Below, piece by piece: positions 35,551-51,929 of a stretch of 64,000 nucleotides of DNA. Every line of letters begins with the position of its first letter. Within the stretch, counting starts at the first letter, position 1. This DNA is from a virus (taxonomy: Duplodnaviria > Caudoviricetes), in IMG/VR virus record IMGVR_UViG_3300033070_001161, positions 1 through 64,000 of that record; one strand, written 5' to 3'. The position numbers and the translations under genes are program-made. Below the pieces are notes generated by a model. That model ran no database searches. It saw nothing but the letters and a program-made list of their open reading frames with translations, and was not told the DNA's origin.

Positions 35551-36219
35551 ATGGTAAATAAAATTATTTACAAAACAGGACAAAAATTAGGCAATTTAGA
35601 ATATATCTCTGAAGTAGATGCTCATGTTCGTCCCAACGGAGGAACTAGAAGAAAAGCCATATTTAGATGCAATTGTGGGAAAGAATTTATATGTTTAATT
35701 GAAAGTATTAAGTATGGAAATACTACATCTTGCGGATGTTTAGTAAATCGAAAAGGCGGTAAAACCACACATGGACATACAACTAAGGTAAATAATCTAA
35801 GAACTACAGAATTTATTATATGGCAGGGTATGATTGCAAGATGTGGTGGTTATAAAACAGGTAGAAAGTATAAACGTTATGCTGCTAGGGGAATAAATGT
35901 ATGTGAGAAGTGGTTAAATTCTTTTGATGATTTTTTAAAGGATATGGGGTTTAGACCTAGTAAAAATCATAGCTTAGATAGGATAGATAATAATGGAAAT
36001 TATTGTCCAGAGAACTGTAGATGGGCAACAATAAAAGAACAAAATAGGAATAAATCTACTAACAGATTAGTTACTTTTAATGGTAAAACTCAATGTATTT
36101 CGGATTGGGCAGAAGAAATAGGTATAAATAGAGCTACATTATATGATAGAATTGAAAATTGGCCAATAGAAAAGGCATTGACAACTCCATTAATGAGAAA
36201 AAATAAAAATATCGCATGA
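35551..36219 (+). mobile_element. Free-standing HNH-type homing endonuclease
   Basis: CNCG...TTSCGC zinc motif, YAARGINVCEKW, SLDRIDNNGNYCPENCRWAT..EQNRN, C-terminal HTH. Confidence 0.85.
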
Positions 36220-39678: not shown

Positions 39679-40452
39679 ATGAAGGTTTGTTGGGTAACTT
39701 GTTTTGCAGGAAGACACGATAAAGTAGAAAGAGTAATCAAATGTTTTATGGATCAGGTATATGACGATTATATGTACCTACTACTTTATAATAATTCAAA
39801 AAATCATCAATTTCTAGATTTTATAGAAATGCCTGAAAATAAACAAATTATATTAGTTAATAACTATTTGGACAAAGAATCAGGTAGTGAATATACCAAT
39901 ACAGGAGCAATATTTAGAGACGCTCTTACATTCGTACCAGAAGATGTAAATATTATTAATTTTGCAGATAGTGACGATATATTCCTACCAAACCATACAA
40001 AAGAAGGAGTAAAGGGATATAAAGATGCAATTTCTATAAATCCTGCTTTTAAAGCATATAAACCATTTTTTTCATATTATTTACATGATGATAATCAAGT
40101 AGATAAAGCTCACAATAATATGGAGCCTTCAATTTTTGTTAATTTTGATTATGTAAAAAATACAGGTTTTTATTATGTTCCTGCATCATATCATCAAAAA
40201 TGGTTAACTCCTTTACAGAAGAACTATAATATATACCAACCTTTAAAAGGTGTACCTACATTCCTATATTGTTGGGAATCAGGTCATAATACACATAAAA
40301 TATCAGGACTTGGAGATCACGCTGATAATTTTACAAATCATCGAAAATTTGAAGTAGATGATGGTGATAGTGTACTATCTCCGGCTTTAAACTACGAAGT
40401 GGAGAAATATTATACATTAATAAAACAGAAACAAATTGCCAATTTTAAATAA
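39679..40452 (+). CDS. GT-A fold glycosyltransferase (GT2-like)
   Basis: N-terminal VTCFAGR..VERVIKCFMDQ, FADSDDIFLPNH DxD motif; start at ATG 39679 preferred. Confidence 0.75.
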   Translation: MKVCWVTCFAGRHDKVERVIKCFMDQVYDDYMYLLLYNNSKNHQFLDFIEMPENKQIILVNNYLDKESGSEYTNTGAIFRDALTFVPEDVNIINFADSDDIFLPNHTKEGVKGYKDAISINPAFKAYKPFFSYYLHDDNQVDKAHNNMEPSIFVNFDYVKNTGFYYVPASYHQKWLTPLQKNYNIYQPLKGVPTFLYCWESGHNTHKISGLGDHADNFTNHRKFEVDDGDSVLSPALNYEVEKYYTLIKQKQIANFK

Positions 40453-43400
40453 TTTCGGTCCTATTATTATATCTAGTACAAATTCTAGCTCAATTACATT
40501 AGATAATTGTGCTGTAGAAAATGTTATGGGTATAGGTAGTGCTAAAATATACGTTAATAATAAAATGACGGTTCTTGGAAAAGTTAAATTCCAGAACTCA
40601 AATAATGTATCTTTTGGCATGAATGGATCAGTTATTACGGCTTCTGCACTAGCGGGATCAGGTGCAAACTTTGTATTAAGTAATACCAATGGTATAAGTT
40701 TTGGTACGGCAGGTAGTGTTGTAACAGCAAGTTATACAGTTCCTACAGACTATTTTTCTTCAAATCAGTCTACTCTTTTACAACTTACTGCAAATAATAG
40801 TTTATCTTTAGGTACTAGTTATACTTCCCACACACATAGTCAATATTTAAATACATCTCAATCCACTCTGTTTTTAACCAATCAGAGTGTGCAACCTATT
40901 TCTATATCTGCATCTAATGGATCAACAACCCTGATTTCATTACAACTTGGTACTGAAAATGGTCTTACTTTATATCATAGTAATGGTTCTATATTAGGTA
41001 GTTATACAGATGGGGGCGGTGGAGGTGCAGATGGCATTAATAGAATATCAGCAGGTACGCAAATAGCAGGACTTACACAAACAGTAGTACTAAGTAATTC
41101 TAACAATGTAAGTTTTGGAATGAATGGTAATTCAGTGGTTACTGCTTCTGCAAGTTATTCACAACCAACAGATTATATATCAACTGCTCAAAGCAGTTTG
41201 TTCCAACAGACATCATTAATGTCTAATTATTTAGGAACAGAATATACATCACATAGTCATTCTCAGTATTTAAATACATCTCAAAGTAGCTTATTTCAGG
41301 CAACTTCTGATAATTCATTATCTCTTGGTACTGAATATACATCCCACACACATAGTCAGTATGTAAACACTTCACAAAGTAGTCTTTTTCAACAGACATC
41401 TTTGATGAGTAATTATTTAAATACTTCACAATCATCTCTGTTTGAACAGAGTTCCCATACTACCATATTTTTAACTTCTCAAAGTGCTCAAGCATTTAGT
41501 GCTTCTGGAGGTTCTTCTACTTTTCAGACTCTTAATTTTGCAAACTCAAACGGGTTTACATTTAGCAATACTAATGGTAGTATTCGTGCAAGTTACACTG
41601 TACCAACAGATTATGTATCTACAAACCAAAGTAGTTTATTTGCTTTAACTGCAAATGATTCTCTTTCTTTAGGTACTGGATATACAACACATACACATTC
41701 ACAATATCTGAATACTTCTCAATCATCATTGTTTGAGCAGTCTTCTCATACAACTATTTTCCTGACAACTCAGAGTGGACAAGCATATTCTGCTGGTAAT
41801 GGAAGTAATACTTTCCAAACACTCTCTGTAGCTGATAGTAATGGTGTATCATTTTCTACTGGCACTCAAGGATTATATGCTACTGTAAGAACAAACTATG
41901 CATCTTCAGATCATAGTCATGGTAATCCTACTCTTGCTTTAACAAATTTAACTGGTACAACTGCTTCAAACTCAGGAGGTTTTACATTATCTTTATCTGC
42001 CGCAGCAGGCGGAGGGGGTGCTGATGGTTATAATATATTAGCTGCTGGTACACAAACAGCAACTACGGCAGGTACTGTTGTATTGTCAAATAGTAATGGT
42101 ATATCTTTTGGTATGAGTAATAGTAGTGTTATAACTGCTTCTTATACAGTGCCTACTGATTATGTATCAACAGCTCAATCCTCCCTATTTTTTCAAACAT
42201 CCAACTCATCTTTATTTGAGTTGTCATCTCATACAACTTTATTCCTTACTACTCAAAGTGGTCAGGCATTTAGCGCAAGTGGAGGATCGTCTACATTCCA
42301 AACATTATCATTTCAAGATAGTAATGGTGTATCTTTCAGTAATAATGCAGGTGCAATCAGAGTATCACACGCACTTCAATTTACAAGTAATACTTCTGCA
42401 ATTACAGCAAGTGCTTTAAATACCTCCCAGAGTAGTCTTTTTCAGCATACTTCTGCAACAAGTGCAATTACTTCAAATGCTTTAAATACATCACAAAGTT
42501 CATTATTTCAACATACTTCAGCTACTTCAGCAATAACCTCTAATGCATTGAATACCAGTGCTTCACGAGTTATTAATATTATAGCAGCAACTAATAATAC
42601 TGGTGGTGGTACAGCATCTTTATCAAGCAATGTATCCTTTAGCAATGCTAACGGTATGACATTTTATACATCTGCTGGTAGTGCTATAGTAGGTAGTTAT
42701 ACAGTGCCTACTCTTACAAACAGTTCGCTTACAATGCAAGCTGGAGCATCAACTCTTAGCTCTGTAAGTAGAATTGCTTTTGGGGATGGTAATGGAGTTT
42801 CATTTGGTGCGTCAACATCAAACAATGGTTCAATTACTATAACTGCATCAGTAGCAACAAGTTATGCAGCATCAAATCACTCACATGGCAATCCTACATT
42901 AGCTCTTACAAACTTATCTGGAAGTACAGCAAGTAATAGTGCAGGATTAACTCTTTCTTTGTCTGCTGCTGCACCGGGGGCCGGAGGTGGTATTGTATTA
43001 GCAAACTCACAAACCACATATACTTCAGGAACAGTTAATTTATCTGGAGCTGGAGCTATTACAATTCAGTCTACAACAGGACAAAGCTTCCAGATTAGTG
43101 TACCTGCAACATCTTCATTATCAGCCACTGGTATAATTTCCATTTCAACAAATGGGTCTACAGTGTCTATTGGAGCTTCTCAAAGTAACCAAAACATATC
43201 ATTATATGCTTTAGGAAACACTACTCAGAATTCTTCTACAGTGTTGAATGCCAGTGCTTTATCATTTAATGGACTTAATGGTGCTACAGTAGGATTCTCA
43301 AATGGTAGTATTCAAATTAGTGCAGCAACAGGCGGAACAGGAGGAGGTGGAGGAGGAATAGCCTTAGCTAACTCTCAGACTACTTATACTTCCGGTACAG

Positions 43401-44155
43401 CTCACTTATCTGGTGCAGGTGCTATTAGTGTTATATCTACCACTGGACAATCCTATATATTAAGTGCTCCCGGATCATCATCTATCTCTGGAACTGGTCA
43501 AGTATCTATTTCAGTAAATGGTTCTACTATTTCTATAGGAGTACCTAATGGTGAAACAAGAAGTTTTTATAATCCATATTCTGATATACCTATGGTTGCA
43601 GGTCAGGCTGGTCAGGGTACATTAAATATAAACCCTAACGATTTTCCCAATATTACATTTGATAGAATTTATATGCCAATAAATAATACAAATTCTTCAA
43701 ACTCTTCAGGATCACACACTTTATCTTTTTGGGTAGGATTATATACAAGAAATAACTCAACTTTATCTCTTGTGATGAGTGCATCACAATCATATACAAT
43801 TGTTCACTCTGGTACAGCAGGAAGTTATTCCTTATATTCAGGTATGCGACATGTAAGTATTCCATTAAGTTCATCTCTAAGTGAAGGTTTATATTTTGTA
43901 GGTATAGTCTCTCGTACAACATCTGGTGGAGCAAATGGATCATATTCTCAATTTGTAGCATCTAATATTAACTCTAACTTCTTAGGACATTTTGGTTCTT
44001 CTCATAATACAACATATCAGTTTAGACCCGGAATAGGTGTATATTCTGTTACAACTAGTGGTATACCTTCATCTATTGCAATTTCTCAACTTAGAGGTTC
44101 TGATTCACAAGGATTAAGACCTCCAGTATTAATTTTTGCAAATTCTACAATCTAA
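40436..44155 (+). CDS. Ser/Thr/Gly-rich repetitive fibre protein with HxH metal motifs
   Basis: 1239 aa, TTG start overlapping the GT stop; repeated NTSQSSLFQ, SNSNGxSFG, SYTVPTDY and SHGNPTLALTNL modules; six HxH motifs; very few charged residues. Confidence 0.7.
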   Translation: MPILNNFGPIIISSTNSSSITLDNCAVENVMGIGSAKIYVNNKMTVLGKVKFQNSNNVSFGMNGSVITASALAGSGANFVLSNTNGISFGTAGSVVTASYTVPTDYFSSNQSTLLQLTANNSLSLGTSYTSHTHSQYLNTSQSTLFLTNQSVQPISISASNGSTTLISLQLGTENGLTLYHSNGSILGSYTDGGGGGADGINRISAGTQIAGLTQTVVLSNSNNVSFGMNGNSVVTASASYSQPTDYISTAQSSLFQQTSLMSNYLGTEYTSHSHSQYLNTSQSSLFQATSDNSLSLGTEYTSHTHSQYVNTSQSSLFQQTSLMSNYLNTSQSSLFEQSSHTTIFLTSQSAQAFSASGGSSTFQTLNFANSNGFTFSNTNGSIRASYTVPTDYVSTNQSSLFALTANDSLSLGTGYTTHTHSQYLNTSQSSLFEQSSHTTIFLTTQSGQAYSAGNGSNTFQTLSVADSNGVSFSTGTQGLYATVRTNYASSDHSHGNPTLALTNLTGTTASNSGGFTLSLSAAAGGGGADGYNILAAGTQTATTAGTVVLSNSNGISFGMSNSSVITASYTVPTDYVSTAQSSLFFQTSNSSLFELSSHTTLFLTTQSGQAFSASGGSSTFQTLSFQDSNGVSFSNNAGAIRVSHALQFTSNTSAITASALNTSQSSLFQHTSATSAITSNALNTSQSSLFQHTSATSAITSNALNTSASRVINIIAATNNTGGGTASLSSNVSFSNANGMTFYTSAGSAIVGSYTVPTLTNSSLTMQAGASTLSSVSRIAFGDGNGVSFGASTSNNGSITITASVATSYAASNHSHGNPTLALTNLSGSTASNSAGLTLSLSAAAPGAGGGIVLANSQTTYTSGTVNLSGAGAITIQSTTGQSFQISVPATSSLSATGIISISTNGSTVSIGASQSNQNISLYALGNTTQNSSTVLNASALSFNGLNGATVGFSNGSIQISAATGGTGGGGGGIALANSQTTYTSGTAHLSGAGAISVISTTGQSYILSAPGSSSISGTGQVSISVNGSTISIGVPNGETRSFYNPYSDIPMVAGQAGQGTLNINPNDFPNITFDRIYMPINNTNSSNSSGSHTLSFWVGLYTRNNSTLSLVMSASQSYTIVHSGTAGSYSLYSGMRHVSIPLSSSLSEGLYFVGIVSRTTSGGANGSYSQFVASNINSNFLGHFGSSHNTTYQFRPGIGVYSVTTSGIPSSIAISQLRGSDSQGLRPPVLIFANSTI
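42413..42559 (+). repeat. In-frame 66-nt tandem repeat (ALNTSQSSLFQHTSATSAITSN x2 plus partial)
   Basis: Identical 22-aa units with synonymously diverged codons starting at 42413, 42479 and 42545. Confidence 0.85.
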
Positions 44156-44703
44156 TGGCAGGTACAGCAACTATATATTGGATATCACAATCAGCAGGAG
44201 GAGGAGGTTGTCCTTTTTTAGCAACTTCTTGGGTAGGTACTACAAACTGGCAGGAATCACCTACGGGTATATGGGGTCCTATATCACATCCTCCTAATGG
44301 TGAGGGTATGGTGAATGATAGTATTGCAGGTGACGGTTATATACAAGCAGAATATAACAATACAGATAATGAATCTACAGCCATATTCCTTACAACACTA
44401 GAATCTCCAACTACTCCATATTATGAAAATGTAGAATACGGACTGTATATAAATTCTGATGGTAATTACTGGAGTGCTACAGGAGGAGCAACATATACTG
44501 ATTTATCTGTTCTTGCAGTATCTGGCGATTTATTTAGAGTAATAAGAACAGGAACAACCATAAAAGGTCAGTATTATAGATCAGGTTCGTGGACTGATTT
44601 AGTGACATATACTACAGGAAGTACAGGAACTCTTTATTTAGGAGTATCGTCTGCCAATCCCGGTGTACCAAAATATTGTAGAAACCCAAAATATTGTAAT
44701 TAA
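44155..44703 (+). CDS. Small beta-rich virion/adhesion protein (lectin-like fold possible)
   Basis: Gly/Thr/Tyr-rich alternating beta pattern; overlapping stop/start coupling between fibre and lyase. Confidence 0.5.
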   Translation: MAGTATIYWISQSAGGGGCPFLATSWVGTTNWQESPTGIWGPISHPPNGEGMVNDSIAGDGYIQAEYNNTDNESTAIFLTTLESPTTPYYENVEYGLYINSDGNYWSATGGATYTDLSVLAVSGDLFRVIRTGTTIKGQYYRSGSWTDLVTYTTGSTGTLYLGVSSANPGVPKYCRNPKYCN

Positions 44704-46001
44704 TGGCAACCTATTATATTTCTCCTTCAGGTAATGATACAACAGGTTCTGGTACAATTGGAAGTCCTTGGTTTTCTTTAAATAAAGTATGGGCTTCTGC
44801 TGGATTAGTAGCAGGAGATACAGTTTATTTAAGGGGAGGAACTTATACATATACAATACAACAGTACTTAACTGGAAAAAATGGTTCATCTGGAAATACT
44901 ATAAAACTATATAATTATCCGGGAGAGGCTCCAGTAATTACCCGTGGTGCTAGTTTTGATAAGTCAGCAGGACACCATAGAGGAATGGTTTATTTAGAAG
45001 GCAACTACTTTCATGTAAAAGGAATTAGATTTACTGGAATGTATACAGATGATAATCAGGTAGATGCTGGTCTACAAACTTACAATGTAAATAACTGTAG
45101 ATTTGAATTACTGGAATGTGATAATAATGTAGAAGGAATGATCGTAGAGAATAATTCATCAGGAAATCTGATTATAAATTGTGATTTTCACGATAATTAC
45201 TCGAATTATAGTGGTACAAATGGTGGAAACTCAGATGGACTGGGTATAACTTATAATCTAAATGCATCAAGTACAAATACCGTAGAAGGATGTAGAGCTT
45301 GGAATAACGGGGATGACGGATTTGATACATTTGAATGTTTAGGATTTGTAACTTTTAGAAAATGTTGGTCATGGCACAATGGTTTTCAATATGGTACTAC
45401 TACTCCAGCAGGTAATGGGACAGGTTTTAAACTAGGTTCTGACTTCCTTGGCCCAAATCCGGGAGTTGTTAAACGTAGAATGGAAAACTGTATTGCATGG
45501 GATAACGGAGATTCTTCAGCATCAGGTGGTGCAGCAGGTGCTCACATTAATGAGGCAGAACATCTTGTAGAAATATATAACTGCACATTCTTTGATAATG
45601 GTATTACAGGATTCAATCTTCACTATAATAATGGTGCTCACGTACTTAGAAATGTAATATCTTTTAATAATGCCAGTAAGGATGTTGAAACCAGTACGAA
45701 TAGTAGCTCATTAACTTGTTCTTATGGAACTGGATCAAGTGACGCTTTATCAGGATGGACTCAAAATGCCACTACTGGAGATTTTGTATCAGTAACTCCT
45801 ACAGGAGTAAGTGGTGCTAGACAAGCTGGAGGTAGTCTACCAGTTGTAACATTTTTACATCTTACAGCAGGTAGCGATATGATAGATACAGGAACAAATG
45901 TAGGACTTACTTATATAGGTTCTCCAGATAGAGGAGCTTTTGAATATGGATTATCAGAACTTGAAAGCGGAAATAATGCCACTTTAGCATGGTTTTCTTA
46001 A
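44703..46001 (+). CDS. Right-handed beta-helix polysaccharide lyase (PL9-like) depolymerase
   Basis: YYISPSGND..G.GT..SPW, GDTVYLRGGTY, GNSDG, CRAWNNGDDGFD, GNGTGFKLG. Confidence 0.8.
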   Translation: MATYYISPSGNDTTGSGTIGSPWFSLNKVWASAGLVAGDTVYLRGGTYTYTIQQYLTGKNGSSGNTIKLYNYPGEAPVITRGASFDKSAGHHRGMVYLEGNYFHVKGIRFTGMYTDDNQVDAGLQTYNVNNCRFELLECDNNVEGMIVENNSSGNLIINCDFHDNYSNYSGTNGGNSDGLGITYNLNASSTNTVEGCRAWNNGDDGFDTFECLGFVTFRKCWSWHNGFQYGTTTPAGNGTGFKLGSDFLGPNPGVVKRRMENCIAWDNGDSSASGGAAGAHINEAEHLVEIYNCTFFDNGITGFNLHYNNGAHVLRNVISFNNASKDVETSTNSSSLTCSYGTGSSDALSGWTQNATTGDFVSVTPTGVSGARQAGGSLPVVTFLHLTAGSDMIDTGTNVGLTYIGSPDRGAFEYGLSELESGNNATLAWFS

Positions 46002-46060: not shown

Positions 46061-46795
46061 ATGGGTAACGAAGCTAAAATACATTTTGATCCTTTATATA
46101 GCTATGCAGGATATCATAATTCAAATCCTGAAACAAACAAAAGACTCTCAAAATCAAAAAGTTATGAAGATTTATCCACAATATGCATTGTACCTTGTGT
46201 AGGGGGAATTCCTCCAAAAATAGTACAATCGTGGAGAGGTATGATGACACCAATGAATCAGAGATTTATTATGATTATGGTGGAAAAAATGGAAGTGGGA
46301 CAGGCTTATTCAACTACAATTGAACAAATTCTTGCAAATCCTGAACTTTCTAAATGGAAATACATACTAACAATCGAGCATGATAATGCACCTCCTCCCG
46401 ATGGACTTCTCAAACTATATGAAAATATGGATAAATATGACGGTATAGGAGGATTGTATTTTACAAAAGGTGAAGCTGGTCAACCTATGTGTTATGGTAA
46501 ACCAAATTCATTTCCTGTTAATTTTATTCCATTTATGCCTGATCCTGAGACAGTTACACCATGTAGAGGTATCGCTATGGGATTTTCTCTTTTCAAAATG
46601 GAAATGTTTAAGGATAAACGTCTACCAAGACCTTTATTTGAAACAAAACAAGAGTATATTCCCGGAGTAGGTGCTCAAGCTTATACACAAGACCTCAAGT
46701 TTTGTGAGGAAGCAGGTAAATTGGGATATAAATTTGCTGTAGATTCAAGGGTTAAAGTAGGACATTACGATTACGCTAACGATTTTATGTGGTAG
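46061..46795 (+). CDS. GT-A fold glycosyltransferase (GT2-like)
   Basis: YILTIEHD, IGGLY, GIAMGFSLFK, TQDLKFC, VKVGH pattern. Confidence 0.7.
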   Translation: MGNEAKIHFDPLYSYAGYHNSNPETNKRLSKSKSYEDLSTICIVPCVGGIPPKIVQSWRGMMTPMNQRFIMIMVEKMEVGQAYSTTIEQILANPELSKWKYILTIEHDNAPPPDGLLKLYENMDKYDGIGGLYFTKGEAGQPMCYGKPNSFPVNFIPFMPDPETVTPCRGIAMGFSLFKMEMFKDKRLPRPLFETKQEYIPGVGAQAYTQDLKFCEEAGKLGYKFAVDSRVKVGHYDYANDFMW

Positions 46796-47013: not shown

Positions 47014-47616
47014 ATGGCAAAAAAACAAACCAAAAAAGAAGAAAAAGTATCAGAGGTATTAGAAGTAGTACCTGTAAAACCAGTAAGAATTGACTTTGGC
47101 TGTGGTCAAAATTGTACAGTAGGTGAAGATGGTGAAAAATATATAGGAGTAGATTTTGTAAAATGTGAAGGTGTTGATATAGTGCATGATTTAACTAGTT
47201 TTCCTTATCCTTTTGAGGATAATAGTGTAGATGAAATCGTAAGTAGTCACTTTGTAGAACACCTTACAGGTGAAGATTTCATGAAACATATGGATGAATG
47301 TTGGAGGATTCTGAAACCTAATGGTAAAATGAGGCTCATACACCCTTATTGTTTTTCAGAAAGAGCTTTTCAGGACCCAACTCACAAGACATTTATTCCT
47401 GCTGCTCGTTATCTTTATTTTGATAAAAACTGGAGAGCAGTTAATAAATTAGATCATTACCCAATTAAGAGTGATTATAGTTTTGAAGTGCATGTATCAT
47501 TCCATAATGATAAAGGTGAAAATTGGACAATGAGAGAAGAAAAATTCAGAAATTTTGCTATGGCACATTATATTAATGTAGTAGCTGATCTGATTGTTTA
47601 CTTAACTAAACGCTAA
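47014..47616 (+). CDS. Class I SAM-dependent methyltransferase (Methyltransf_11-like)
   Basis: IDFGCG, YIGVD, DIVHDL...PFEDNSVDEI.SSHFVEHL, RILKPNG. Confidence 0.85.
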   Translation: MAKKQTKKEEKVSEVLEVVPVKPVRIDFGCGQNCTVGEDGEKYIGVDFVKCEGVDIVHDLTSFPYPFEDNSVDEIVSSHFVEHLTGEDFMKHMDECWRILKPNGKMRLIHPYCFSERAFQDPTHKTFIPAARYLYFDKNWRAVNKLDHYPIKSDYSFEVHVSFHNDKGENWTMREEKFRNFAMAHYINVVADLIVYLTKR

Positions 47617-47617
47617 T

Positions 47618-48724
47618 ATGAGAGAATATAGTATAATTTCATGCGTAGAGGATAATGAGCGATTTATTTGGGAAACTACTGTTCAATTACATAACGCTAG
47701 GAAATATAATCTTTCTGATAAATTCAGAATATTAGTATTTCTACCTGCTTATAATCTTTCCAAAGGAATATCGCCAAAATGGAAGCAATTAGCAGAAATA
47801 TTCAAAGAAACTAAATTCTTTTTCTTTGTAGATAAAAATGCAAAAGTTACAGATTTAGCAGTAGAATATCAATATATACCTATTCATAGGTTATCTTCAT
47901 TAGAACAACATTTTAAAGATTTTCCAGAGCTTGAAAAGCAAGCTATATTATATATAGATAGTGACGTTATTTTTACATCCACTCCTAAATTCTTAGATTA
48001 TTTAGATGATGATGTAAACTACCTTTCTGATACACGTACTTATTTAAATCATGAGTATCTTGTATCTAAAACAAAGGATGTAATTAAAGAAAAGCAGGAA
48101 GAATATACAAAAGCAAATATAATAGCTAAAGCAGTATCATTTGCAAAAATCACTGAAGAAGATTTAAAAGAACACAATGATAGCACCGGAGGAGCACATT
48201 ATTTATTTAAAAATATTACATCTAAATTCTTCTCCTCATGCATAGAAACATGTTTACTGGTAAGAATGTATTTTCAAATCGTAAATCAACAGTGGTTTCC
48301 CGGAGAGTTTCCTCAAGAAAAAGAAAACAACGGTATACAAAGTTGGTGCGCAGATATGTGGTCCATTCAATGGAATTTATGGAGATTCAAATTACCATCA
48401 GAAACACCAAGTTGGATGGACTTCGCTTGGGCCACAGAAGAAACATCCAAATTAGATAAGCGTTTCTGGATGCATAATGCAGGGGTTACAGCAGATTCAA
48501 AAATAAGAATAGTTGATAATTTAAAAACCAAAAAAGATGAAGCTGGAAATCCTATTATTATAGATGCTCCTGCTTTTTATAAAGAAGCTTACAAGAACAA
48601 ATCAGTATTTGACGATGTTGAAAATCTACAAAAAATAGTAAATCATCCTGAATCTTCTAAATATTGTACATCTGTATATGTTCAGGAAATTATAGATACA
48701 TACAATTCACTAATAAAAAAATAA
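47618..48724 (+). CDS. GT-A glycosyltransferase resembling peptide O-glycosyltransferases (GT96 SERGT1 / GT95 HPAT-like)
   Basis: RFIWETTVQLH, YIPI, LYIDSDVIF, GGAHYLF, SWCADMW and WMHNAG occur in the same order as SERGT1 motifs recalled from memory. Confidence 0.55.
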   Translation: MREYSIISCVEDNERFIWETTVQLHNARKYNLSDKFRILVFLPAYNLSKGISPKWKQLAEIFKETKFFFFVDKNAKVTDLAVEYQYIPIHRLSSLEQHFKDFPELEKQAILYIDSDVIFTSTPKFLDYLDDDVNYLSDTRTYLNHEYLVSKTKDVIKEKQEEYTKANIIAKAVSFAKITEEDLKEHNDSTGGAHYLFKNITSKFFSSCIETCLLVRMYFQIVNQQWFPGEFPQEKENNGIQSWCADMWSIQWNLWRFKLPSETPSWMDFAWATEETSKLDKRFWMHNAGVTADSKIRIVDNLKTKKDEAGNPIIIDAPAFYKEAYKNKSVFDDVENLQKIVNHPESSKYCTSVYVQEIIDTYNSLIKK

Positions 48725-48730
48725 ACAAAA

Positions 48731-49138
48731 ATGAATAACAGAACACGAATTTTTACACGTTTGGATGCCAAGAAAAACCGTATTCCCGGATCATCTGTAC
48801 AACGCAAAAGTATGCCTAAAGTGGGCGATTGGGTTGAAGAGGATGTTAACCTATGTTGTGCCCCATATGTATTACTTACTGCTACACCAGCAGATGTTAC
48901 AGATGATGTATTTAACGTAGTAATTTCATGTAGTGCTTCCCCTGTACTTACTCAGGTGGTAACACTCGCAGCAGCTACTACTACTATTCAAGAGGTAGTA
49001 GATGGATTAAACAGTAAAGCATCCCATCTTGGTGTATTCCAAGTAGACGGAAGTAATATACTTTTAAAGTTGAAGCAAGATATAGCAGATACACTTTGTA
49101 CAGATTCTGCAAATCTTACTTTAGCTATCACCGTATAA
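48731..49138 (+). CDS. Hypothetical, probable virion protein
   Basis: Basic N-terminus (R..PGS..R..MPKVG.W.E..CC) and beta-rich C-terminus. Confidence 0.5.
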   Translation: MNNRTRIFTRLDAKKNRIPGSSVQRKSMPKVGDWVEEDVNLCCAPYVLLTATPADVTDDVFNVVISCSASPVLTQVVTLAAATTTIQEVVDGLNSKASHLGVFQVDGSNILLKLKQDIADTLCTDSANLTLAITV

Positions 49139-50320: not shown

Positions 50321-50348
50321 AAAAAGCCCCTAATTAAAGGGGCTTTTT
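50321..50348. terminator. Bidirectional Rho-independent terminator
   Basis: AAAAAGCCCCT-aattaa-AGGGGCTTTTT at the convergence of the plus and minus gene blocks. Confidence 0.9.
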
Positions 50349-51929
50349 CGTTTGTGGCCAATTATTAACATATTCTCTTAATTCTTCTTTTGACATTGCT
50401 CTTATCTTTTCCAGCTCTTCGTAATTCTTACCAAACATAGGATTCGATCCTCCACTATCAGGTCCACACCAATGATCTACGTGATATACTATTCCTTTGA
50501 TTCTCAGGATTTTATATCCTAATTTATCAAATCGTTCATATCTCTCCACATCTTCCGGGCCGTAGCTTATAAAGTTTTCATTCTCTCCTCCTCCTTCAAA
50601 AAACTTGTCTTTATTCCATATAATAATATGTCCTACACTCTTAGGATCAAATGGTCGTGTTCCTTTAAACACCGTACTACCTAATATACCCACATCTCCT
50701 CCTCTATCCCTCAGTTTGCGATACCACTCCACTCTATTTAATCGAGCTACCCTACCATCATAAGGATACACCATATCAGCTTCTCCTCGTCTAATAGCAT
50801 CTACACCAAGTTTCATCTGTAGAATTGAACATATATTATCGCAATCGAAATTTATTACACACTTATAACTTAATGCACTACTAGCCATAACATTTAACAT
50901 TCGAGTTCTATGAAAATGTTCTCCTCCAAATATACTATAATTATGATTGGGTAGAAATTTACCAAAGAAATTGCCTCCTTGTTCTCCTACATGAATCGTA
51001 GATTCAAAATTATTCTCAATCCATTTGAGAATTAATTCCATATTTTCTTCTCTATCTTTATGGTCATACTTTACAGGAATTGTAAAATATGCATCTTTTA
51101 TATCAAGTTTTTCACCTCTATAATCATATGATGTCCAATCTTCCGGCCAAAAATCATCAGTGTTATGTGTTTCTTCCAAATATCCTTTAAAGTATTTAGA
51201 AGGATATACAACAGTACTATCTGGTTTTTGTCCAAGATAAGCCTGCCACCATGAAAATGTGCTATTAGGTATAATAAAATGATCGCAGAATGTACCTAAA
51301 CAGAGCTGTTCTATATCAGATAATCCATCTGCAAAATGGATACTTTCATGACAATCTAAATGGCGTTTAGCATAGTCATAATTATCACTAAATACAAGAA
51401 TGTTATTTTCCTGTTCCCAATTTGGGAAATATTTATATAAAGCTCCAAGTTGATATTTAATATCTAAAATTTCATAATTTCCATTATCTACATAATCTTC
51501 TGCTACACGTATACCAATTAATATTGTATGTTTATTATTTGAAAATATATGACTATATTGTTCATACAACCTATATTTAAATTCAGGTATAAAATTAAAT
51601 AATAAACCACTTATATCAGACCTATAGTGTGCCCAATATTTAGGAGATTGCAACCATCCTGTAACGCTAACATGTTCCTTTCCTTCAAACTGTTCCTTCC
51701 AATAATCCCATCCAGAGAATGAGTAAGATGGTTCACCTATATCCTGTTTAAAATCTCCTCTTGGAATAAGAGGAATATTAGATGTAAAATATTCAGCATA
51801 ATTCCATTCAGGAAGTGCTAATTTCCTATTAAATCGTTTTGACATTCCATATAATGCAGCTAATTGAAACATTGAGTTTCCAAGTCTACCCATTCTTCGT
51901 CCAAATTTAGAATAAGAAATAGTTTTCAT
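50334..51929 (-). CDS. Bifunctional glycosyltransferase: GT11 (alpha-1,2-fucosyltransferase-like) fused to GT2/GT7C (galactosyltransferase-like)
   Basis: N-half GRLGNSMFQ, GWLQSPKYW, VFSD, HFIIPNSTFSWWQAYL; C-half FHRTRMLN, NFDCD, GGENENFISYGPEDVER..R..G..I.R..G..YH.DH. Confidence 0.8.
   Translation of the reverse strand: MKTISYSKFGRRMGRLGNSMFQLAALYGMSKRFNRKLALPEWNYAEYFTSNIPLIPRGDFKQDIGEPSYSFSGWDYWKEQFEGKEHVSVTGWLQSPKYWAHYRSDISGLLFNFIPEFKYRLYEQYSHIFSNNKHTILIGIRVAEDYVDNGNYEILDIKYQLGALYKYFPNWEQENNILVFSDNYDYAKRHLDCHESIHFADGLSDIEQLCLGTFCDHFIIPNSTFSWWQAYLGQKPDSTVVYPSKYFKGYLEETHNTDDFWPEDWTSYDYRGEKLDIKDAYFTIPVKYDHKDREENMELILKWIENNFESTIHVGEQGGNFFGKFLPNHNYSIFGGEHFHRTRMLNVMASSALSYKCVINFDCDNICSILQMKLGVDAIRRGEADMVYPYDGRVARLNRVEWYRKLRDRGGDVGILGSTVFKGTRPFDPKSVGHIIIWNKDKFFEGGGENENFISYGPEDVERYERFDKLGYKILRIKGIVYHVDHWCGPDSGGSNPMFGKNYEELEKIRAMSKEELREYVNNWPQTKKPL

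Follow-up and report, generated by a model that had tools for sequence, protein, structure and literature searches.

A predicted GT-A glycosyltransferase family of phages, encoded beside threonine/serine-rich tags on virion proteins

On what acceptor would a soluble glycosyltransferase (GT) encoded by a tailed phage act, and at which step of glycan synthesis? The question is raised by a single open reading frame (ORF) with an ATG start, located at 47618..48724 on the + strand of a 64,000-nucleotide stretch of IMG/VR virus record IMGVR_UViG_3300033070_001161, where the record is a virus fragment of 81,221 bases with a completeness estimate of 70% and the whole 64,000-nucleotide stretch is referred to here as the window. 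The ORF specifies a protein of 368 amino acids (aa), soluble and of predicted GT-A fold, which belongs to PHROG 4417; the initial annotation had read it, from the order of six short motifs, as an initiating enzyme of phage protein O-glycosylation and a possible viral branch of the plant peptide glycosyltransferase families GT95 and GT96. Comparative genomics strongly ties this GT family to threonine (Thr)/serine (Ser)-rich tags on phage virion proteins, and we consider it probable that the enzyme, soluble and cytoplasmic, O-glycosylates such tags on the phage's own virion proteins, most likely placing the first sugar. Shown in this analysis are the modelled fold, the conserved DxD, His, Gln and Lys residues, the lack of a membrane anchor and the genomic link to poly-Thr tags; which acceptor and donor sugar the enzyme uses, its retaining mechanism and its initiating role are what we infer.

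All six motifs quoted in the initial annotation were located in the translation and in the order claimed, at residues 7 (ISCVEDNERFIWETTVQLH), 86 (YIPI), 110 (ILYIDSDVIF), 191 (GGAHYLF), 242 (SWCADMW) and 284 (WMHNAG). An alignment of 50 sequences has Y86, R91, Y112, D114, D116, G191, G192, Y195, Q241, D246, H286, A288, G289 and K322 invariant, while Y86, D114, D116, Y142, H286 and K322 are still invariant over 134 more distant members. Judged by these alignments the six motifs are no chance strings but form the core that a protein family has conserved. The family is represented among the PHROGs by phrog_4417, a profile of unknown function (E 1.5e-26, residues 7-295 on profile positions 4-254 of 293), and every GenBank homologue is labelled hypothetical; a Pfam scan gave no match at E ≤ 1 apart from one to NosL, which was judged spurious. 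With regard to its distribution, 592 representative clusters match at E ≤ 1e-3, a subfamily profile matches 3664 clusters (90% identity), and two subfamily profiles have at least 589 and at least 443 confirmed places in IMG/VR. A complete relative of the window's phage, with a genome of 122,240 bases, encodes a copy of the GT that is 89% identical to that of the window.

The association with Thr/Ser-rich proteins was established on 160 IMG/VR loci, 80 from a short subfamily and 80 from the window's subfamily, which were picked by similarity to the GT, had their ORFs called mechanically and show association, not causation. Each gene at positions -8 to +8 relative to the GT gene was scored by the Ser+Thr (S/T) content of its richest 30-residue segment, with thresholds of at least 18 or at least 15 S/T. 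For the short subfamily the -1 gene attained at least 18 S/T in 49 of 78 loci, with a median maximum of 24 of 30, followed by the -2 gene (13/69) and the -3 gene (6/57), and the remaining positions from -8 to +8 did so in 0-1 loci. For the window's subfamily it was the +1 gene that carried such a segment in 21 of 80 loci (34/80 at the threshold of at least 15), with 11/76 for the +2 gene, 8/79 for the -1 gene and 0-2 loci for background positions. Many of these tracts are pure (30/30 Ser or Thr) or of the form TTTTTAAPTTTTT. The association withstood de-replication at 70% GT identity, as 30 of the resulting 48 clusters had a poly-S/T gene within three genes, and such genes numbered 38/259 near the GT gene versus 2/388 far from it (odds ratio 33, p=4e-14). 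As a separate observation, the tags often contain proline (Pro), for which extensin-like hydroxylation is conceivable but rare.

Isolated phages allow the tagged proteins to be named. In VPE25 and bIL285 the major capsid gene is immediately followed by the GT gene, and in iLp84 the GT gene comes second after it, behind one small poly-Thr gene (gp8), while in phiFL1A, phiCTP1 and 1706 the gene immediately before the GT gene encodes the tail tube. In PT94 the GT gene comes after a gene for a small poly-Thr protein and precedes the tape-measure gene, and in MA9V-3 it comes after a poly-Thr protein gene and before a Gp10_C baseplate-like gene. Overall the GT gene is situated among capsid/tail genes in seven of the eight isolated phages examined, and a poly-Thr run is present on the capsid, tail-tube or neighbouring protein in all eight. 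In their capsid and tail-tube proteins the run is C-terminal, as exemplified by the tail tube of 1706, which ends ...GVTTTTTTTTTTHHD, and by the capsid protein of phiFL1A, which ends ...GETTTTTKPTTTTTKPTTTTTTTQG. The Enterococcus phage VPE25 was additionally observed to have, besides its tail-tube tail, a short Thr run (ETTTTTTKK) toward the C-terminal part of its prohead protease/scaffold fusion (L002:3349-4527).

A control was provided by the tail-tube protein of bIL285 (orf50), for which 194 homologues of less than 60% identity were found in other phages. Six of these were examined, from Javan590, Javan499, phiRg507T2_2, EauS-123, GBSV1 and PH10, none of which is among the 77 GT-matching records. 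All six homologues (approximately 47-56% identical to orf50) lack a Thr run and terminate soon after a conserved W(F/Y)xxVY motif; among these tail-tube homologues the tag is thus gained and lost along with the enzyme.

The class of the enzyme was deduced from its predicted structure, which was obtained with AlphaFold2 using an alignment and is confident (predicted local distance difference test score, pLDDT, 96.4; predicted template modelling score 0.93). In a fold search the best match was glycogenin (score 14.6 with a root-mean-square deviation, rmsd, of 3.7 Å over 235 aligned residues; 15.1 on a second look), followed by the Skp1 alpha-galactosyltransferase AgtA (14.5), the catalytic domain of UGGT (13.9), LgtC (13.8), WbbM (13.7), LARGE1 (13.5), GlyE (13.2) and GT6 enzymes (11.6-12.3); several of the top matches are enzymes acting on proteins or protein-bound glycans. 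The model consists of a single Rossmann-like alpha/beta/alpha domain, as expected of GT-A enzymes, and the DxD motif, D114-S-D116, follows the fourth strand, with strand 109-112 preceding it. On this model the protein falls among the GT-A glycosyltransferases with a DxD motif, and its structural type is the retaining, GT8-like one; a retaining mechanism is what the modelled fold would imply, and the enzyme is probably metal- and nucleotide-sugar-dependent. The phage GT is only 6-12% identical to glycogenin and other GT8-type enzymes (LgtC, GlyE, XXYLT1, LARGE1), to the GT24 enzyme UGGT and to the GT77 enzyme AgtA, and it is about 100 residues larger than the GT8-type retaining GT-A enzymes. 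It gave no match to Pfam Glyco_transf_8 at E ≤ 1, and neither the protein nor the family profile, searched against the sequences of the PDB, hit a solved GT, all matches being spurious. Its hydropathy over 19 residues peaks at 1.33 and the chain opens directly with strand 1; owing to the absence of a hydrophobic segment the enzyme should be cytoplasmic.

In the mechanism that we propose, the GT would add sugar to Thr/Ser-rich tags of particle proteins before or during assembly and would most likely put the first sugar on the peptide, after which the glycan would be lengthened and modified by the products of the variable glycosyltransferase and methyltransferase genes nearby. Among the genes downstream of the GT gene in 50 loci (L055-L131) there were GT6 (6), GT32-like (5) and GT2 (4) enzymes, methyltransferase families (approximately 10), radical SAM/SPASM proteins (3) and 2-oxoglutarate (2OG)-Fe(II) oxygenases (PF13640, prolyl-hydroxylase-like; 2). 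Proteins of 575-903 aa in which the GT domain is joined to a methyltransferase, GT2, GT7C or GT32-like (PF04488) domain also occur, an arrangement that fits multi-step glycan assembly lines; the fusion proteins observed are P0158, P0172, P0177, P0181, P0217, P0262 and P0267-P0269. An initiating role is likewise favoured by phage phiFL1A (38.7 kb), in whose record the GT is the sole annotated glycosyltransferase. A constant GT beside the tag, accompanied by partners that vary, fits a peptide-directed transferase that would initiate the glycan, with lineage-specific elaboration to follow.

For the crAss-like lineage to which the window belongs, the clearest tag would be a C-terminal tail of approximately 20-25 Ser/Thr on a putative auxiliary capsid protein, with the fibre described below as a candidate acceptor inside the window. 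The 122-kb relative has one strong tract only, namely the C-terminal tail (22/30 S/T) of a 378-aa protein which is encoded three genes after the major head protein (L214:6262-7398, corresponding to 25262-26398 of the relative's genome, G043). The tail is kept by all seven homologues found (59-100% identical; L235-L239, L223:6900-8039), the family's C-terminus taking the form ...YLGxPxxESG, then about 20 S/T, then L(I/V/T/L)P and the stop, and the tail-keeping genomes include one with a GT 57-58% identical to that of the window and another with a GT 36% identical to it. The 378-aa protein gave a whole-chain fold match to 7qof_a (333 residues) together with FliD-like and PH-like partial matches, which reproduce the published length and two-domain architecture of gp36 of phicrAss001. 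The latter is an auxiliary capsid protein that makes up the outside layer of the capsid, each major capsid protein being matched by one copy of it (PMC10172136). From a low-confidence model, the whole-chain fold match and gene order, the 378-aa protein is tentatively assigned as an auxiliary capsid protein like gp36; hhalign of the two proteins gave a probability of 1.5% only. The gp36 protein of phicrAss001 ends ...SGLTIATL, exactly at the point where the tail of the window's lineage starts, and no match to the GT was found in phicrAss001. No isolated phage gave a tblastn match to the tailed capsid protein.

A number of observations weigh against the proposed role. A poly-Thr tract is absent from the window and from the 81-kb record as a whole, the orthologue of the small GT-adjacent protein having lost its own, and the tailed capsid protein is seen in relatives only, the record being a 70%-complete fragment; by way of a common exonuclease gene the record was found to begin approximately 31 kb into the map of the 122-kb relative, and the head module is therefore missing from it. 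The model of the 378-aa protein is poor, with a pLDDT of 53.5 and an rmsd of 11.8 Å to 7qof_a. Among the nearest solved folds, many (AgtA, GlyE, UGGT, LARGE1) belong to enzymes that extend glycans and do not start them, the window holds at least three other GT domains as possible initiators, and the single GT of phiFL1A is judged from the annotation of its record. Finally, poly-S/T genes are missing next to the long forms of the family (450-710 aa) that Chitinophaga, Pedobacter and Sphingobacterium carry on their chromosomes, and the GT family is therefore not tag-bound everywhere; such forms may act on a different acceptor. The chromosomal long-form loci (L012, L014-L016, L018-L031, L033, L035-L048, from Chitinophaga, Pedobacter, Sphingobacterium and Elizabethkingia) were seen to have a C-terminal extension added.

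The alternative that survives best, and one that is compatible with the function favoured above, holds that the phage GT genuinely belongs, as a viral or prokaryotic branch, to the plant hydroxyproline (Hyp) arabinosyltransferases (HPAT, GT95, PF23452) or serine galactosyltransferases (SGT1, also termed SERGT1, GT96), with shared ancestry and possibly with their Hyp-arabinosylation or Ser-galactosylation chemistry. The plant enzymes, which are anchored in the Golgi membrane, start glycans by attaching the first sugar to low-complexity Ser/Hyp tracts in structural proteins (PMC8012813). A first sugar on a low-complexity tract is also the role that we propose for the phage GT, and in that respect the two resemble each other, whereas the phage GT is soluble, without the membrane anchor characteristic of GT95 and GT96, and its proposed acceptors are Thr tracts as opposed to Ser/Hyp. 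In favour of a common origin, 22 of the 30 nearest named clusters of the GT in the ESM-Atlas carry PF23452 and six carry DUF7164, PF23452 being present on 10% and 40% of the members in two such clusters listed; in the rows listed the nearest clusters are all viral and of 274-294 aa. These neighbours are the only positive pointer from the GT itself to HPAT, a lead from a language model, to which may be added matches of PF23452 to two of 50 close relatives at an E value of only 0.013, the frequent occurrence of Pro inside the tags (AAPTTT, VAPTTT) and the 2OG-Fe(II) oxygenase genes downstream of the GT gene in two of 50 loci. On the other hand, PF23452 did not match the GT at E ≤ 1 and its cut-off of 23.9 bits was not reached, nor did it match any of 74 distant relatives at E ≤ 0.01 or any of 13 further relatives consisting of isolated-phage homologues and representatives. 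Together with PF23741, it left the family gene unmatched in the phage's own genome, three bacterial carriers, 79 IMG/VR records and 401 Bacteroidota genomes, weak tests as no control matched either. A profile search among longer proteins, aimed at the SGT1 enzyme of approximately 800 aa, retrieved four fused phage forms and nothing else, and no Pfam entry was among the 120 matches listed for a subfamily profile search. Shared ancestry with the plant families is thus rather unlikely. The initial annotation was therefore borne out in so far as virion protein O-glycosylation, probably as the initiating enzyme, is the preferred role for this DxD-containing GT-A enzyme whose family is tied to Thr/Ser tags, while membership of GT95 or GT96 was not sustained, since PF23452 gives no family-level match; an analogy of function with the plant enzymes would hold, and it draws on evidence other than a likeness of motifs.

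It is less likely still that the GT extends a glycan which another phage or host enzyme has already begun on the Thr/Ser tags. Such a role would accord with several of the best fold matches, as GlyE extends the glycan on serine-rich repeat proteins and AgtA that on Skp1, but it is at odds with the finding that the GT stays constant beside the tag gene and the other GTs differ from locus to locus, with the annotation of phiFL1A, and with the nature of the top fold match, glycogenin, which glycosylates a protein side chain directly. That the acceptor is instead a host envelope glycan, a teichoic acid or phage DNA, the poly-Thr link being simply a co-location in late operons, is very improbable, for even though phage GTs glucosylate DNA and alter host serotypes (reviewed in PMC12619734) and the chromosomal bacterial homologues lie apart from poly-S/T genes, the enrichment is position-specific (49/78 at -1 versus almost none beyond three genes of the same structural modules), the tail is gained and lost with the GT gene among homologous tail-tube proteins, and the GT gene is found inside the capsid/tail operons of small temperate and lytic siphophages. 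DNA modification and host-serotype conversion were set aside on account of this position-specific link to tag genes.

Glycosylation of virion tags by a phage-encoded initiating GT, the role that we favour, has its nearest parallel in mycobacteriophages, where, as far as a later article relates, glycans are located at the C-termini of capsid and tail-tube subunits (Freeman et al. 2023, via PMC12619734). Comparably, the GT gene of the present family lies beside capsid or tail-tube genes whose products end in Thr runs; the two differ in that the present system is found in phages of Bacteroidota and Firmicutes and in that its proposed tag is nearly pure poly-Thr/Ser. A second comparison can be made with the polypeptide N-acetylgalactosamine (GalNAc)-transferases of GT27. 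The latter are retaining GT-A enzymes that start O-glycans on dense Thr/Ser/Pro tandem repeats; in contrast to these Golgi-resident enzymes the phage GT is cytoplasmic and has no lectin domain, and GT27 was absent from the top 50 fold matches of the GT model. The capsid glycosyltransferase A064R of chlorovirus PBCV-1 is a weaker fold match to the GT than is GT8, and, unlike the phage GT family, involves no poly-Thr tag, the glycans of PBCV-1 being N-linked. To our knowledge, mycobacteriophages are the only phages in which glycosylation of the virion by enzymes of the phage has been described to date. Literature searches on the GT family, on phage poly-Thr tails and on phage HPAT found nothing relevant within the collection of papers covered; the GT family is uncharacterised and very widespread, and is distinguished by a genetically encoded poly-Thr tag, whereas phage virion glycosylation itself is already known.

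Taken at its full breadth, the proposal is that thousands of phage lineages share a poly-Thr tag and a soluble GT that starts a mucin-like O-glycan, the enzyme perhaps being a prokaryotic or viral relative of the extensin GTs, and to this combined statement we give an even chance. The lineages in question comprise crAss-like, jumbo and aquatic phages as well as siphophages of Enterococcus, Lactococcus, Lactobacillus, Staphylococcus and Clostridium, and the tag would be carried by capsid, tail-tube or fibre proteins, which would give the particle a dense sugar coat. If the T=9 architecture of phicrAss001 holds for the window's lineage, one tail per auxiliary capsid protein would amount to several hundred per capsid. 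Sugar-coated particles would then be common among phages of gut, dairy, skin and aquatic bacteria, including candidates for therapy, such as Enterococcus phage VPE25 and its relatives, and phages responsible for dairy spoilage. A glycan coat could affect recognition and clearance by antibodies, adherence to mucus, particle stability and host range, and the poly-Thr tag together with a single soluble enzyme would constitute a compact and portable tool for the glycosylation of proteins in the bacterial cytoplasm.

Immediately downstream of the GT gene in the window, a 135-aa protein is encoded at 48731..49138 on the + strand, beginning 6 nt past the GT stop; it has no Pfam or PHROG family but is an orthologue of a conserved GT-adjacent family. 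Comparison of the +1 gene translations from 15 related loci revealed a common N-terminal ...GxWxE....CC motif, which in most relatives is followed by a poly-Thr tract. The window's protein ends ...LTLAITV, and the copies of two other loci (L137, L138) align to that point and then continue with 8-20 Thr; the +1 protein of the 89% relative also stops where the Thr tract of these two begins. Members of this family (67-167 aa) were observed to have a basic N-terminal module ending ...GxWxEIxAYECC ahead of the poly-Thr (L137, L138, L149, L156, L157, L164, L169, L173, L193, L207). The family may represent mucin-like decoration or 'brush' proteins.

Upstream, an S-adenosylmethionine (SAM)-dependent methyltransferase of 200 aa (47014..47616, + strand; Methyltransf_11, E 9.1e-10; phrog_6636, E 7.6e-10) is encoded by a gene that ends 1 nt before the GT start codon, and the two are therefore probably co-translated. 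Methyltransferases are among the commonest partners of the GT family in other genomes, and this one is a candidate glycan methylase. The product of 46061..46795 (+ strand), in the same plus-strand block, is a second, unrelated GT-like protein of 244 aa, with matches to phrog_1574 (E 1.9e-10) and phrog_12406, a 'glycosyltransferase' (E 3.9e-4), and none in Pfam; it is a candidate elongating enzyme. A convergent gene at 50334..51929 (- strand) specifies a two-domain GT (Glyco_transf_11, E 1.3e-16; Glyco_transf_7C, E 1.8e-4; phrog_2644, E 1.8e-31), of which the N-terminal part is GT11-like and the C-terminal part GT7C/GT2-like, and which is a candidate elongating enzyme of the same glycan.

Further upstream lies the gene for a repeat fibre of 1239 aa (40436..44155, + strand) with 33% Ser+Thr and up to 15 S/T per 30 aa, which has no Pfam or PHROG match and of which a 1226-aa homologue is present in the 122-kb relative. 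Though without a poly-Thr tract, it is the richest candidate acceptor within the window; its NTSQSSLFQ repeats, suggested as the acceptor in the initial annotation, are a possible target, whereas the relatives would point to poly-Thr tails instead. Directly after the fibre gene and a 182-aa ORF, positions 44703-46001 (+ strand) encode a probable tail-spike or depolymerase, a right-handed beta-helix protein resembling Pel9A (E 1e-23), which ranks with the fibre as the richest S/T candidates in the window and the 81-kb record. Within the structural block, an HNH homing-endonuclease-like gene (35551-36219, + strand; phrog_374, E 1e-56) is situated between a 1856-aa ORF and a tail-spike-like 941-aa ORF.

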